IMG/VR virus record: IMGVR_UViG_2554235189_000008
Length of the DNA stretch: 4,227 nucleotides
Origin: a virus
Lineage: Duplodnaviria > Heunggongvirae > Uroviricota > Caudoviricetes
Direction: 5' to 3' (one strand)
Shown: positions 638-4,227 of the stretch, one piece after another
How the letters are laid out: every line of letters starts with the position of its first letter
How positions within the stretch are numbered: position 1 is the stretch's first letter
The notes under the pieces: generated by a model
Seen by the model: only the letters and a program-made list of their open reading frames with translations
The model's database searches: none
Told to the model about the DNA's origin: nothing
Position numbers and translations under genes: made by a program

Positions 638-652
638 TCGCTTTGTCAGCGA
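638..652 (-). promoter_or_regulatory. nutR boxB-like RNA hairpin (minus-strand transcript 5'-UCGCU GACAA AGCGA-3')
   Basis: 5-bp stem with pentaloop GACAA, between cro and cII on the PR transcript. The 13-nt core CGCTGACAAAGCG is identical to the hairpin upstream of N at 3594-3606. Confidence 0.45.
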
Positions 653-690
653 CGTAGGACGAATGTCCATTGTGAAAATAGCGGTGTTAC

Positions 691-924
691 TTATGCAGCC
701 GATGCTCTACGCGATACGAACACTAGGTTTTCCTTTTTCACAGGTTTATAACCCGTGAAATTACGAGTAGCTTCTTCGATTGCATTCGCTTTATCAGGGG
801 AAGCTCTTCGAAATCCATATGCAATCTGGTCAAGATAGCCAACTGAAGTTTTCGCTAATGCGGCGAGTCGCTTCCATTCCTCACTAGAAGCCTCTTTTCG
901 CCAGCGTAGTAGTTCATTACTCAT
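691..924 (-). CDS. cro: Cro-like HTH repressor, divergent from cI
   Basis: 77-aa ORF transcribed divergently from cI across the operator region. SD GGAGG (revcomp of 931-935) lies 6 nt before the ATG. Probable HTH in ...TSVGYLDQIAYGFRRASPDKANAIEEAT... Confidence 0.75.
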   Translation of the reverse strand: MSNELLRWRKEASSEEWKRLAALAKTSVGYLDQIAYGFRRASPDKANAIEEATRNFTGYKPVKKENLVFVSRRASAA

Positions 925-935
925 TAGTGCCTCCG

Positions 936-1019
936 TTTATCACACAGAACAACTTTACCATTTTGATAAATCAACCGCAATGTAAATTTATCATATTGCG
1001 TATTTATCCATTTGCTAAA
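936..1019. promoter_or_regulatory. OR operator region: four 17-bp sites built on TTTATC-N5-GATAAA half-sites (936-952, 954-970, 987-1003, 1003-1019)
   Basis: Read directly: TTTATCACACAGAACAA, TTTACCATTTTGATAAA, TTTATCATATTGCGTAT, TTTATCCATTTGCTAAA at roughly 17-bp periodicity between the divergent cro and cI starts. Confidence 0.6.
952..980 (-). promoter_or_regulatory. PR-like promoter toward cro (-35 TTGCGG = revcomp 975-980, 17-nt spacer, -10 TAAAGT = revcomp 952-957)
   Basis: Sigma70-like hexamers with 17-bp spacing on the minus strand, overlapping operator sites 936-952 and 954-970, about 25 nt upstream of the cro SD. Confidence 0.45.
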
Positions 1020-1037
1020 TAGAGGGAAAATTGTGAG

Positions 1038-1742
1038 ATGGAAAACAAAGATATTCGCAAATCGAATCTGGCGTTTTTGCTAGATGAGCATAAAAAAATC
1101 GCGGGTAACACTAATGCAAGCTTTGCCGATAAGCTTGGGGTTAGCCCTTCTCAACTCACGCAAGTCTCCGGTGAAAAAAGCACTCGAAACATAGGGGATA
1201 AACTAGCAAGAAAATTTGAAGCCGCGCTTGGGTTACCTAATGGGTGGCTTGATTTGGTACATGATGTAACACCAATTGCATCATGCTCAGATTCTTTAAC
1301 TTTTGTCGGTCAGGTAAGAAAAGGGTTAGTGCGCGTGGTTGGTGAGGCAATTCTTGGTGTTGATGGTGCCATCGAGATGACCGAAGAGCGCGATGGGTGG
1401 CTCAAAATTTATAGCGATGATCCAGATGCCTTTGGTCTTCGTGTGAAAGGAGACAGCATGTGGCCCAGAATAAAATCAGGAGAATATGTACTCATTGAGC
1501 CTAACACCAAAGTATTCCCGGGTGATGAGGTGTTTGTCAGAACCGTTGAAGGACACAACATGATTAAGGTTCTTGGCTATGACAGAGATGGAGAATACCA
1601 ATTTACAAGCATTAACCAGGATCACAGGCCTATAACGTTGCCTTATCATCAAGTAGCAAAGGTGGAGTATGTAGCTGGTATTCTGAAGCAATCTCGCCAT
1701 CTGGATGACATCGAGGCAAGGGAGTGGCTGAAAAGTTCGTGA
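1038..1742 (+). CDS. cI: CI-type prophage repressor, N-terminal HTH plus C-terminal S24 (LexA-like) autopeptidase domain
   Basis: 234-aa ORF. HTH-like segment ASFADKLGVSPSQLTQVSG, and the S24 catalytic-serine motif GDSMWP with a downstream Lys (MIKVL). Divergent from cro across the operators. Confidence 0.9.
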   Translation: MENKDIRKSNLAFLLDEHKKIAGNTNASFADKLGVSPSQLTQVSGEKSTRNIGDKLARKFEAALGLPNGWLDLVHDVTPIASCSDSLTFVGQVRKGLVRVVGEAILGVDGAIEMTEERDGWLKIYSDDPDAFGLRVKGDSMWPRIKSGEYVLIEPNTKVFPGDEVFVRTVEGHNMIKVLGYDRDGEYQFTSINQDHRPITLPYHQVAKVEYVAGILKQSRHLDDIEAREWLKSS

Positions 1743-1802
1743 CTTCATCGTCACATAGCTGGTAACCAGTGGCCAGAAGAAACGTTTGGGTGAGGAGGAT
1801 AG

Positions 1803-2144
1803 ATGGCGTTCACTGACCTTGAATATCAAGCGGTCAAAAAAGAAGTTCACCAATTCATTGAAAGCATAAGGCCGCCTGAACATATCCGCAATGAACTGGA
1901 TATTGTTTATAGCATCAATGACCAAACGATAGATATCGGCGAACAGCGCCCCGTGTGGCAGGGCAACCCAGGTGAAACAAACATCCTGCCATCAGCAAGA
2001 ATCAAGTACATACGTTCTCTGGATAGATGGAAAATCTATTGGATGCGGAAGGATATGAAATGGCATCAGTACAGTACTGAACTTTCGCTGACTGATGCGC
2101 TTGAGCTTGTGCGTGCTGACCCGGATTGCTGCTTCTTCGGATGA
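1803..2144 (+). CDS. Hypothetical protein (113 aa), first gene of the cI-downstream accessory cassette
   Basis: Strong SD GAGGAGG (1792-1798) 4 nt before ATG 1803. Co-directional with cI, 60-bp gap after the cI stop. Trp-rich C-terminal half and a terminal DPDCCFFG. I cannot assign a family. Confidence 0.75.
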   Translation: MAFTDLEYQAVKKEVHQFIESIRPPEHIRNELDIVYSINDQTIDIGEQRPVWQGNPGETNILPSARIKYIRSLDRWKIYWMRKDMKWHQYSTELSLTDALELVRADPDCCFFG

Positions 2145-2214
2145 GTGAAGAGACGTTTGGATGATGGATGATCGCAGAGATGCTCGTAGAGCATACAGCG
2201 ATGCAGGAGAATTT

Positions 2215-2649
2215 ATGGCACTTAATTTAGAAAGAATATCTTTTATAACCCCATTTGATAGCAGCGAAGAACCCAACCAACCGACGCTTAATTTTACATG
2301 CAATGAATTTCCTGCGCGGCTATCAATTGATTTCAGGGTTGGTATGATCGGGTTGAAACCAAATTCAAGATATAATTTGGGTATTATGGTAATCCCCGCG
2401 CACCTAATTATAAAAAAAGGTGAGGAAATTCAATTCCCTGACGGCTCTTCGGAATCAGTTTCACTTTTCATCGATACGAAAGATAGCCATTTTGAAACAG
2501 GGGTTGGCGGACAGGTAATAGTAACATTGAAAGAAATTAGGGTCCCAGCTAAAGGGCTGTATAGTGTTATAGGGATATTGCAAGATAATGAAGACCCTAA
2601 AAATGAACTTCATAAAAATGAATCATTTTTCACCGTAGAGCTATTATGA
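2215..2649 (+). CDS. Hypothetical protein (144 aa from ATG 2215; the longest ORF starts at 2161 and gives 162 aa), second gene of the accessory cassette
   Basis: ATG 2215 is preceded by AGGAG (2205-2209) at 5-nt spacing; ATG 2161 has no good SD. The stop TGA (2647-2649) overlaps the next gene's ATG (2646-2648). No recognisable motif. Confidence 0.7.
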   Translation: MALNLERISFITPFDSSEEPNQPTLNFTCNEFPARLSIDFRVGMIGLKPNSRYNLGIMVIPAHLIIKKGEEIQFPDGSSESVSLFIDTKDSHFETGVGGQVIVTLKEIRVPAKGLYSVIGILQDNEDPKNELHKNESFFTVELL

Positions 2650-3266
2650 GTGACGACAGTAATTTAAATAATCATGGAAAGCAAGACACCAACATATCTG
2701 AAAGCCGGAGGTTGAAGGTTGTTGGCGGTTCCGATTTTGAGGCTGAATTTGATAATTCTCCCACCAAGGTGCAAAATAATTACATAAAACCGCCACAAAC
2801 GGAGGAAGAAGTGGGAACGATCAGCAGAGAGGAACTTGATGCTCGCTTAGCTGCTAATAAAGCAGAGATGGAGTCTATTGCTTCTTCCATTAGGGCTGAC
2901 ATGGCTCTATCTCGTGAAAGCGTTAATGTCCAATTTGCATCACTTAATGCAGCCATAAGCTCTCTATCGTCCAAGATCGATGGAAAGATGGATAGCGCTG
3001 CTGGCGATATAAAAGCAATTAATGGGAGATTCGAAGGAATTCAAGGACAAATAACAGGGGTTAATACCGCAATTAGTGGTGTTCAGTCGGGTATTTCTAT
3101 ACGATTAGCCATTTTTAGTGTCATTATCGCTGTAATAGTTGCGATTCCCGGGCTGGTATCAGCTTTAAAGTCAGACCACGCACCTTTGCAACAGCCTTCC
3201 ACTTTGCAAGCGCCGCCACAAAATACCCAGCCAACAGACAACAAAAAAACCACTCCCCAGCATTAA
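2646..3266 (+). CDS. Hypothetical membrane-anchored protein (206 aa): N-terminal soluble region with predicted coiled-coil character, one C-terminal TM helix, Pro/Gln-rich tail
   Basis: Single hydrophobic stretch IRLAIFSVIIAVIVAIPGLVSAL (about residues 152-173, nt ~3100-3165). Preceding Ala/Ser/Ile-rich heptad-like sequence. ATGA start/stop overlap with the upstream gene. Confidence 0.75.
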   Translation: MSDDSNLNNHGKQDTNISESRRLKVVGGSDFEAEFDNSPTKVQNNYIKPPQTEEEVGTISREELDARLAANKAEMESIASSIRADMALSRESVNVQFASLNAAISSLSSKIDGKMDSAAGDIKAINGRFEGIQGQITGVNTAISGVQSGISIRLAIFSVIIAVIVAIPGLVSALKSDHAPLQQPSTLQAPPQNTQPTDNKKTTPQH

Positions 3267-3272
3267 CGCATT

Positions 3273-3300
3273 AACCCGGCCTCAGCGCCGGGTTTTCTTT
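3273..3300 (+). terminator. Rho-independent terminator ending the cI/accessory operon
   Basis: AACCCGGC (3273-3280), loop CTCAGC, GCCGGGTT (3287-3294), then TTTTCTTT through 3300. It starts 7 nt after the stop of the last cassette gene. Confidence 0.7.
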
Positions 3301-3404
3301 GCCTCACGATCCCCACACCTAAAAACACATAACCAATTGTATTTGTTGAAAAATAAATAGATACAACTTGCTAAACAACGCAATCCAGATCTCCCTCAAA
3401 TCTC

Positions 3405-3530
3405 TTTATTTATCCTGTCGAATTCCTACAACAAAATAAAACACCATAAGAATCAATACGATATTTGAAAACCAAGAGAATTTATCATTTTGCTATTGCC
3501 ATTAATTTATCATTCCGATAAAGTTCACCC
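3405..3530 (+). promoter_or_regulatory. OL/PL-like region: TTTATC operator sites (3409-3414; 17-mers 3481-3497 and 3506-3522) and PL-like promoter (-35 TTGCCA 3496-3501, 17-nt spacer, -10 TAAAGT 3519-3524)
   Basis: Site 3506-3522 TTTATCATTCCGATAAA is a perfect inverted repeat of the half-site seen in OR and overlaps the -10. The same -10 hexamer TAAAGT is used by the PR candidate. Confidence 0.45.
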
Positions 3531-3592
3531 ATCAGCAGGACGCACTACTCACCAGGGCGGTGAATATACAACGATTCGAATATGAATCTACG

Positions 3593-3607
3593 GCGCTGAC
3601 AAAGCGC
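3593..3607 (+). promoter_or_regulatory. nutL boxB-like RNA hairpin (5'-GCGCU GACAA AGCGC-3')
   Basis: 5-bp stem plus GACAA pentaloop about 60 nt downstream of the PL candidate and upstream of N. Core identical to the nutR candidate at 639-651. Confidence 0.45.
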
Positions 3608-3618
3608 AATAACCAAAG

Positions 3619-3759
3619 TGAACTTTGGGGTGTGGTGAAGGGTTCATGGACGGGAATATGTCGCACGTAAAGCGGCGAGGCCTGTAGGACTATTGCCGAA
3701 TTGAAGTAGGCCGAAACAGGTCGAAATGGGTCTCCCACCTACCACACCACCAAAGTTCA
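3619..3759 (+). ncRNA. Structured leader element upstream of N: 18-bp long-range stem (3619-3636 with 3741-3759, one bulged A at 3749) enclosing about 104 nt
   Basis: Revcomp of 3619-3628 (TGAACTTTGG) equals 3750-3759 (CCAAAGTTCA); revcomp of 3629-3635 (GGTGTGG) equals 3742-3748 (CCACACC). The 3' arm ends 3 nt before the N SD AGGAGG (3762-3767). Confidence 0.45.
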
Positions 3760-3772
3760 TCAGGAGGTCTAT

Positions 3773-4156
3773 ATGACACGCAGAACTCAGTTCAAAGGCA
3801 ATTCACATTCTCGTCGTCGTGAGCGTTTAAAGGCAAAGGCATTAGCTAACGGCGTGCTGGCCCGCGAAGAAGCAATAAGTTCAGAAGTATTACACCGCCC
3901 TACTCTAAGCAGAGCGCAGATTCAGGCTAAAGGTACTCACGAAACGCCTGAGCGCATAGAAGACGCTAAGCCAATTAAGTTCATGGCACAGGACGTGATC
4001 TGGCAGCAGAAAGAATACAGACGCAATCTGGAGCGAGCGGCCATTGTGTACGCGAATGAGTTTGGACATAAGCAACCAGAAACTGGTGTATGTCTTCCAA
4101 ACGTAGCCATTTACGCTGCAGGCTACCGGAAATCCAAACAACTGACAGCAAGATAA
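3773..4156 (+). CDS. N: N-like transcription antitermination protein (127 aa)
   Basis: N-terminal arginine-rich motif GNSHSRRRERLKAKALANG resembles the lambda N ARM (QTRRRERRAEKQAQW). Position downstream of OL/PL and a boxB hairpin. SD AGGAGG 5 nt before the ATG. From memory the sequence resembles N of H-19B/933W-type phages. Confidence 0.75.
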   Translation: MTRRTQFKGNSHSRRRERLKAKALANGVLAREEAISSEVLHRPTLSRAQIQAKGTHETPERIEDAKPIKFMAQDVIWQQKEYRRNLERAAIVYANEFGHKQPETGVCLPNVAIYAAGYRKSKQLTAR

Positions 4157-4168
4157 CTTGTGTTGGTC

Positions 4169-4227
4169 TGAACCGCCCCGGGTTTCCTGGAGAGTGTTTT
4201 ATCTGTGAACTCAGGCTGCCAGATCAT
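4169..4227 (-). mobile_element. Right end of an IS3-family insertion sequence (IS629/IS1203-like): terminal inverted repeat plus the last codons of its transposase on the minus strand; the element continues beyond the window
   Basis: 4169-4193 TGAACCGCCCCGGGTTTCCTGGAGA is the inverted partner of 1-19. The minus strand reads ...GAT GAT CTG GCA GCC TGA (stop = revcomp of 4211-4213), matching my recollection of the IS629 orfB 3' end. Confidence 0.65.

Follow-up and report, generated by a model that had tools for sequence, protein, structure and literature searches.

Two boxB-type hairpins in a lambdoid immunity region

The 4227-base window analysed here (the whole stretch of DNA of IMG/VR record IMGVR_UViG_2554235189_000008) comes from a lambdoid prophage of E. 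coli, of which it is the immunity and early-regulatory region. A truncated O gene, cII, cro and a probable PR promoter lie on the minus strand, and cI, three cargo open reading frames (ORFs), a terminator, a PL-like promoter and the antiterminator gene N lie on the plus strand (Table 1). Our subject is a pair of short hairpins, one on each early transcript. An earlier note on this DNA had proposed them to be the boxB elements of an H-19B/933W-type pair of nut (N utilization) sites, nutR and nutL.

Table 1. Features of the window, with positions counted from its first base.
Feature	Position	Strand	Remarks
Truncated O	17-223	minus	ORF; stop at 17-19
cII	256-552	minus	Complete ORF
Downstream of nutR to cII	556-637	minus	Hairpin AUGCG-UUUCCA-CGCAU at 593-608; 100% identical to H-19B and 933W
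nutR boxB UCGCU-GACAA-AGCGA	638-652	minus	5-bp stem, pentaloop; -6.4 kcal/mol, z -2.4
nutR spacer hairpin GGAC-AUUC-GUCC	657-668	minus	In minimum free energy and centroid structures; covered by oligonucleotide RS663
nutR boxA-like CGCUAUUUU	675-683	minus	7/9 match to CGCUCUUUA; the 9 nt that open the 933W nutR feature; within RS662
cro	691-924	minus	77 amino acids; complete ORF between PR and nutR
Probable PR, TTGCGG-17-TAAAGT	953-981	minus	Read from the sequence; 31-nt inverted repeat with the PL region
cI	1038-1742	plus	Complete ORF
Cargo ORF 1	1803-2144	plus	DUF3024 protein; also in 933W, next to cI
Cargo ORF 2	2161-2649	plus	162 amino acids; no family
Cargo ORF 3	2646-3266	plus	206 amino acids; coiled-coil-like middle, hydrophobic C-terminal segment
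Terminator	3273-3294	plus	Upstream of the PL-like promoter
PL-like promoter, TTGCCA-17-TAAAGT	3496-3524	plus	Consensus promoter scan; 100% identical to H-19B
nutL as annotated in 933W and phage 27	3541-3607	plus	67 nt; nominal boxA CGCACUACU at its start
Leader hairpin UCACC-AGGGC-GGUGA	3549-3563	plus	Folding; lambda PL leader counterpart CACC-AUGAA-GGUG
nutL spacer hairpin GAUUC-GAAUAU-GAAUC	3573-3588	plus	Folding of the leader
nutL boxB GCGCU-GACAA-AGCGC	3593-3607	plus	5-bp stem, pentaloop; -8.5 kcal/mol, z -3.0
N-leader stem-loop	3620-3758	plus	Follows nutL and precedes the N ribosome-binding site; -58.7 kcal/mol, z -5.3, 0/200 shuffles
N antiterminator gene	3773-4156	plus	127 amino acids; Pfam PF25694 N_peptide, E 2e-15

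The core of the two hairpins is a 13-mer, CGCTGACAAAGCG, which occurs in the window in exactly two perfect copies, at 639-651 on the minus strand and at 3594-3606 on the plus strand. When up to two mismatches were allowed, three matches were observed against a chance expectation of 0.07, and none of 200 shuffles gave as many. The identity between the two copies extends in the 5' direction to CUACG, resulting in a 19-nt inverted repeat that is 95% complementary. The closing pair of the stem is changed on both sides between the copies, being U-A in nutR and G-C in nutL. Since the loop is asymmetric and nevertheless reads GACAA on the early transcript at both places, the repeat argues for an element that acts at the level of RNA. 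The third match to the 13-mer (CCCTGATAAAGCG, two mismatches) falls at 787-799 on the minus strand within the cro coding sequence and is probably due to chance.

Folding of both leaders confirmed the coordinates and the structures given in the earlier note, a 5-bp stem capped by GACAA in each case. The hairpins form alone as well as within the full leaders, where their base-pair probabilities are 0.83-1.0. Compared with shuffled sequences, the 89-nt nutR leader as a whole is not more stable (z +0.2), while the nutL leader has a z of -2.05; given that the nutR leader has no global excess of stability, the case rests on the local hairpins and on comparison. An E-value search of the entire window against Rfam returned three sub-threshold chance matches and no nut or boxB family. 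The nutR hairpin lies after cro, 39 nt past its stop codon, and before cII, and the nutL hairpin lies about 62 nt downstream of the PL-like promoter and 165 nt upstream of N. The gene map thus agrees with the proposed lambda-like placement of a nutR/nutL pair with another loop, and the layout is that of lambda, P22, H-19B and 933W. The other marks of a lambdoid boxB, namely a stem of about 5 bp, a purine-rich penta- or tetraloop and conservation between nutL and nutR, are likewise present, and nutL has the P22-type boxB sequence GCGCUGACAAAGCGC.

Alignment to known sites gave a direct identification. H-19B (AF034975.3) and 933W are both 100% identical to the window over 556-700, and H-19B is also 100% identical over 3274-3632, which covers OL, PL and nutL. 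The nutR feature of the 933W RefSeq record, CGCTATTTTCACAATGGACATTCGTCCTACGTCGCTGACAAAGCGA, equals window 683→638 exactly, and its 67-nt nutL feature equals 3541-3607 with one mismatch (CGCAtTACT). The proposed H-19B/933W-type assignment is therefore supported by sequence identity and by existing annotation, and the N protein described below adds to it. Four oligonucleotides, RS662, RS663, RS664 and RS665, have been used as antisense reagents against boxA, the spacer, boxB and the region just past boxB of H-19B nutR (Muteeb et al., 2012; PMC3526286). They match the window exactly at 672-695, 653-674, 633-656 and 612-637, respectively, and nutR over 612-695 is base for base the published H-19B sequence.

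This identity gives access to experimental data. N-dependent readthrough has been shown for a nutR of identical sequence, both with a lacZ reporter in vivo and in a purified system, where antitermination was efficient with NusA and NusG only (PMC3526286). In the same work N together with NusA/NusG protected the spacer and boxB of H-19B nutR from RNases H and T1 and left boxA unprotected, and the Rho loading site was found to overlap the nut spacer, H-19B nutR/tR1 being an overlapping nut/rut Rho-dependent terminator (PMC3526286). The sites are widespread, with nutL present in 443 and nutR in 435 of 5426 complete E. coli genomes (~8%). The H-19B nut sites were reportedly described in about 1998-2000 (by Neely and Friedman, in 1998 and 2000), and the 933W annotation is said to be that of Plunkett et al. 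H-19B nutR/tR1, which the Sen laboratory has used, has for years been a standard template for studies of N and Rho. The feature is hence the already known H-19B/933W nut sites, of which the earlier note had passed over the spacer hairpins, the identity of the nutL boxB to that of P22, and the prior annotation and study; only the comparative series below is mildly new.

Leader structure, boxA and the relatives

Dyad symmetry in the spacer between boxA and boxB, which characterizes nut sites of the H-19B/933W type, was found in both nutR and nutL (Table 1). With the nutR spacer hairpin folded, about 10 nt of single-stranded RNA (CACAAU plus UACG) would connect the boxA position to boxB, and the corresponding spacers of lambda and P22 measure 8-11 nt. 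The hairpin may thus have a role in spacing. In-silico disruption of one arm of the nutR spacer dyad, modelled on published genetics, left the boxB pairing probability at ≥0.82 and was uninformative. As boxB pairing is unchanged in such spacer mutants, thermodynamic folding gives no account of the published 'alternative structure' effect. The segment between nutR and cII would correspond to the Rho-dependent termination zone tR1 of H-19B.

On the other transcript, the lambda counterpart of the leader hairpin, CACC-AUGAA-GGUG, is located directly 5' of lambda boxA. Further downstream, the large N-leader stem-loop has a base helix (CUUUGGGGUGUGGUG/CACCACACCACCAAAG) in common with the lambda N leader. 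In leaders of the epsilon34 type this helix carries compensatory changes (AUGCGAUG/CAUCGCAU), and the interior of the stem-loop has been replaced among phages. The lambda N leader hairpin is an RNase III site. By analogy, the stem-loop in the window is probably a lambda-like, RNase III-processed hairpin that couples nutL to N translation.

A canonical boxA accompanies neither hairpin, as the earlier note had observed. The sequence CGCTCTTTA with fewer than two mismatches occurs nowhere in the window, and matches with two mismatches are not above chance (9 observed, 12.1 expected). The candidate in nutR is CGCTATTTT at 683→675 on the minus strand, 22 nt before boxB; it is the one that had been singled out as nearest, and the nutR annotated in 933W begins there. 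The usual lambdoid arrangement, CGCUCUU(U)A positioned 8-11 nt upstream of boxB, was not found at either site. Sites of the H-19B type are known to be peculiar in this respect, so that the lack of this arrangement does not exclude membership of that subtype. In nutL the site homologous to lambda boxA reads GGUGAAUAU, and relatives have GCUCUUUAA there, so that nutL is effectively without a boxA. The window sequence where the true lambda boxA would fall is GGTGAATAT. The nominal boxA of 933W nutL, CGCAYUACU (CGCAYTACT, 3541-3549), was rejected because its lambda homologue, CGCACUGAC (CGCACTGAC), is ordinary PL leader; the true lambda boxA follows the CACC...GGUG hairpin and so lies downstream of CGCACUGAC. 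Overall, nutR reads as having a degenerate boxA (CGCUAUUUU) and nutL as having none, unlike lambda and P22; NusB and NusE are recruited by this element.

We compared these sites with those of 80 IMG/VR loci that encode N at ≥98% identity by BLAST (close relatives) and with a more distant set consisting of the Salmonella phages epsilon34, SPN9CC and BIS08P22, phage P22, and prophages from Kluyvera, Citrobacter, E. albertii, Lonsdalea and one Enterobacteriaceae genome. A scan of one genome per species with an N alignment yielded 11 loci, too few for statistics. Among the close relatives boxB is invariant (79 loci for nutL, 73 for nutR), the nutL spacer hairpin is altered in the loop only, and one nutR spacer change is from A-U to G·U. 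Pairing of the nutR spacer helix is complete (100%) in 9 sequences, in which one pair occurs as A-U, C-G and G-U, and two relatives have another nutL spacer stem (GUCGA/UCGAC) in which pairing is kept. Over 13 distinct nut sites, 94.9% of the cells of the boxB stem are paired compared to 67.7% in shuffles, and slid registers reach 26-43%. Twelve cells show changes on both sides of a pair, a number that was attained in none of 500 shuffles.

The type of loop follows the type of N. A GACAA or GUCAA loop occurs with the N motif GNS(R/H)SRRRERLKAKA or the P22-type GNAKTRRHERRRKLA, and a GAAA tetraloop occurs with GSA(A/S)GRRRERRAALQ, on an N that is otherwise 75-76% identical. This co-variation between the loop and N's arginine-rich motif (ARM) is, among the arguments from sequence alone, the strongest one for the hairpin as the element that N reads. 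The presence of a GAAA loop and a different ARM on a conserved N body looks like the swap of an RNA-recognition module. Boxes with the GAAA tetraloop were located in locus L087 (4547-4560 and ~2190 on the minus strand), in L091 (5811 and 3184) and in L089, L092, L093 and L094. The sites in Salmonella, Kluyvera, Citrobacter and others have the same scaffold of spacer hairpin, CUACG and boxB, with a loop one nucleotide shorter than GACAA. N genes of enterobacterial phages were also encountered in assemblies labelled Xanthomonas pisi (L090, a 394-nt contig, N 98% identical) and in a Segatella copri metagenome-assembled genome (L093, L096), most likely as a result of contamination or mis-binning.

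The boxA position varies. In close relatives the nutR boxA is either CGCTATTTT or CGCTCTTTT, the C variant being present in ~38% of loci and matching at 8 of 9 positions. At one end of the series, L093 and L094 have CGCTCTTTG/CGCTCTTTT in nutR and GCTCTTTAA/GTTCTTTAC in nutL; E. coli phages of the Shiga toxin type have CGCT(A/C)TTTT, and in the epsilon34 group, L091 and L092 nothing recognizable is left. The polymorphism of nutR boxA (675-683 and the homologous positions in L007-L094) suggests relaxed selection in this nut lineage. We consider it possible, though doubtful, that the nut sites with spacer hairpins (those of H-19B, 933W, epsilon34 and their relatives) make up a lineage of their own in which boxA was lost stepwise (CGCUCUUUG/U to CGCUAUUUU to none) and in which the ARM/loop module, GACAA pentaloop or GAAA tetraloop, was swapped on a constant N body. 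Were that the case, they would provide a natural series for how the N complex gains processivity without NusB and NusE, and the rare R12H substitution described below could be an affinity or specificity variant and not decay.

The N protein, the prophage and rival explanations

The N protein of the window is 97% identical to that of H-19B and 99% identical to that of 933W, and belongs to the N_peptide family (Table 1). Its N-terminal region follows the pattern MTRRTQFKGNS(R/H)SRRRERLKAKALANG, with the ARM reading 12-HSRRRER-18 in the window and RSRRRER in H-19B. The limits of the motif, residues 12-18, are those defined for H-19B N, in which antitermination at tR1 is lost when point mutations hit the nut-binding region at the N-terminus, of which the ARM, 12-RSRRRER-18, is a part (PMC3526286). 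Codon 12 (3806-3808) encodes His in the window, whereas Arg is found in H-19B, 933W and 79 of the 80 IMG/VR relatives. Arg12 is the first residue of the ARM and aligns with the P22 lysine that contacts the boxB loop bases G6 and A7.

The prophage has been interrupted as well. On both sides the window ends in the terminus of an insertion sequence (IS) element of the IS3 family, 1310 bp long (1-24 and 4164-4227). E. coli 14EC001 has a copy of it (L002 7514-8823) whose far end matches positions 1-19 and whose near end matches 4169-4227, in the same orientation. The immunity segment of 4.15 kb may accordingly lie between two direct IS copies, or represent a repeat-bounded contig or a circle. The segment 16-4168 was found again at ≥99% identity in several complete E. 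coli chromosomes. Over longer distances, 16-1793 is 97.6% identical to the H-19B record AF034975.3 and 3532-4168 is 98.1% identical to 933W.

We assign the two hairpins to nutL and nutR of an H-19B/933W-type lambdoid prophage with a probability of about 94%. They most likely work by N antitermination of the standard kind, which is nucleated on boxB, has NusA on the spacer and takes little if any input from boxA and NusB/NusE. Transcription from PL (rightward, plus strand) and from PR (leftward, through cro) would place a boxB hairpin in each nascent RNA. N, still tethered to the RNA, would engage NusA on the spacer and, through its conserved C-terminus, RNA polymerase. The elongation complex would then withstand Rho at tR1, which overlaps nutR and continues past it, and would also withstand terminators further downstream. 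The boxB loop may adopt a P22-like geometry.

Several points weigh against this reading or parts of it, even if none of the data contradict the nutL/nutR assignment. The covariation set is small and its sequences are partly related, which makes it supportive and not conclusive. The prophage is defective, with gene O cut by the IS element at codon 68, and binding of the His12 protein to boxB could be weaker. That the sites act in the present defective copy would follow from the published nutR of identical sequence, from which the antitermination evidence comes. The dispensability of NusB, NusE and boxA would rest on indirect evidence and on the Neely and Friedman paper of 2000, whose title gives a lowered requirement for host factors and which reportedly found full independence of NusB and S10.

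That the hairpins are not N sites at all, being chance inverted repeats, protein-binding palindromes in the DNA or small terminators or processing signals, we regard as next to impossible. Short GC-rich palindromes are common and the stem is indeed symmetric in DNA. However, a chance repeat was rejected on the expectation of 0.07 given above, a terminator because neither hairpin is followed by a U-tract and the terminator scan was silent on both, and a DNA palindrome or operator because the loop is asymmetric, with GACAA on the transcript at both places, and the stem covaries at the RNA level. In addition, the G and A positions of the loop are invariant, the loop type follows the ARM type of N, and an identical sequence has been footprinted by N (PMC3526286). 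We take more seriously, while still thinking it unlikely, that the sites are genuine nut sequences turned into inert relics, in a fragment that cannot replicate and with a substitution, R12H, that weakens or abolishes boxB binding. O is cut short at codon 68, at the left junction, by the end of an IS3-family element, and past N there is another IS end; His12 is found in only 1 of 80 IMG/VR relatives and opens the ARM, where the aligned P22 lysine touches loop bases; and the nearby substitutions S11F, R15C/P and R18P kill function (PMC3526286). On the other hand, R12H was not among the defective mutants isolated and a histidine can still contact RNA. Moreover, nutL, nutR, PL and the reading frame of N are undamaged and hardly differ from those of functional phages, and cI, cro, cII and N are all complete ORFs.

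A further possibility concerns boxA. The degenerate nutR sequence CGCUAUUUU could be a working NusB/NusE site that aids processivity, so that the system would not be independent of boxA. It matches at 7 of 9 positions, stands where relatives carry CGCTCTTTT/CGCTCTTTG, is improved to 8 of 9 by the C variant in ~38% of close relatives, and would come to a lambda-like distance from boxB once the spacer hairpin is folded. But boxA was unprotected in RNase H footprints of the N/NusA/NusG complex, and in vitro antitermination was efficient without NusB or NusE (PMC3526286). Salmonella, Kluyvera and other relatives of the same architecture lack any boxA-like sequence, nutL has none, and matches with two mismatches occur in the window at chance frequency. 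The reduced host-factor requirement that Neely and Friedman announced in the title of their 2000 paper points the same way. We therefore consider a working boxA improbable, and prefer antitermination that depends on boxB and the spacer.

As a discovery this result carries little weight; its value is a firm assignment of the feature, for which the earlier sequence-only reasoning proved sound. The comparative picture adds a little, in that boxA erodes, the spacer hairpin is kept and the loop type goes with the RNA-binding motif of N. Delayed-early expression in Shiga-toxin phages is under the control of the N system, so that variants of N and broken copies like the present one have a bearing on whether the remnant of a prophage is still able to respond to induction.

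The gene cro is annotated at the homologous place in H-19B and BP-4795. The PL transcript start ATCAGCAGGACGCACT is homologous to that of the lambda PL transcript, as judged by comparison with the lambda leader. The consensus promoter scan of the window reported no promoter at 953-981; PR is probably located there, since this segment mirrors PL and overlaps operator-like TTTATC...GATAAA/GGTAAA repeats. Operator-like repeats of the form TTTATCA...GATAAA/GGTAAA are common to the cI-cro intergenic and PL regions (951-981 with 3495-3525, and 985-999 with 3479-3493). A strong terminator-like hairpin with a T-run is found at 280-307 on the plus strand and is antisense to cII at the 3' end of that gene; lambda and P22 have the oop RNA terminator in this position. 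The cargo block (1803-3266), between cI and the terminator upstream of PL, occupies the position of lambda rexAB. It differs from both H-19B and 933W (which has stk there) and is carried by ~11 complete E. coli genomes.

Comparison with known systems

Lambda has the same layout, with PL, nutL, leader hairpin and N on one side and PR, cro, nutR, tR1 and cII on the other, and shares the PL transcript start and the base helix of the N leader. Its boxB is likewise a 5-bp stem with a purine-rich pentaloop. The stem, however, is GCCCU/AGGGC and carries either GAAAA or GAAGA as its loop, and the ARM sequence differs. In addition, lambda has a boxA, CGCUCUUA, 8-9 nt upstream of boxB with an unstructured spacer between them. 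Lambda N requires NusB and NusE in vivo.

Sites of the epsilon34 type share the leader scaffold (ACAACG, spacer hairpin, CUACG, boxB), and the central and C-terminal parts of their N are 75-76% identical to those of the window N; most members lack a boxA. They differ in the GAAA tetraloop, in the ARM of N (GSAAGRRRERRAALQ) and in stems that are altered by compensatory changes.

With P22, boxB is the shared element. The nutL boxB of the window, GCGCUGACAAAGCGC, is identical at 15 of 15 positions to the P22 nutL boxB and to the RNA of the N-peptide complex determined by nuclear magnetic resonance (PDB 1A4T). The nutR boxB of the window is identical to that sequence at 13 of 15 positions, the U-A closing pair being a compensatory change, and P22 nutR has a GACAA loop closed by C·C. 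The last 30 residues of P22 N are 67% identical (20/30) to the window N, but outside the ARM and the C-terminus no BLAST alignment was obtained. In a MAFFT alignment the window ARM, GNSHSRRRERLKAKALAN, agrees with the N peptide of P22, GNAKTRRHERRRKLAIER, at 7 of 18 positions in the pattern GN.x.RRxER...A, in a segment that BLAST did not report. A search of PDB sequences with the window N gave nothing relevant, N peptides being too short or too divergent. Unlike the window, P22 has no spacer hairpin, and each of its boxB elements is preceded by a canonical boxA, CGCTCTTTA, at a distance of 10-11 nt.

Compared with H-19B and 933W, the window is an IS-bounded fragment with a truncated O, an N with His12 and other cargo between cI and PL, and its N-leader hairpin is in the middle like that of 933W and not like that of H-19B. 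Common to all three are the spacer hairpins, a degenerate boxA and the placement with respect to cro, cII, PL and N.

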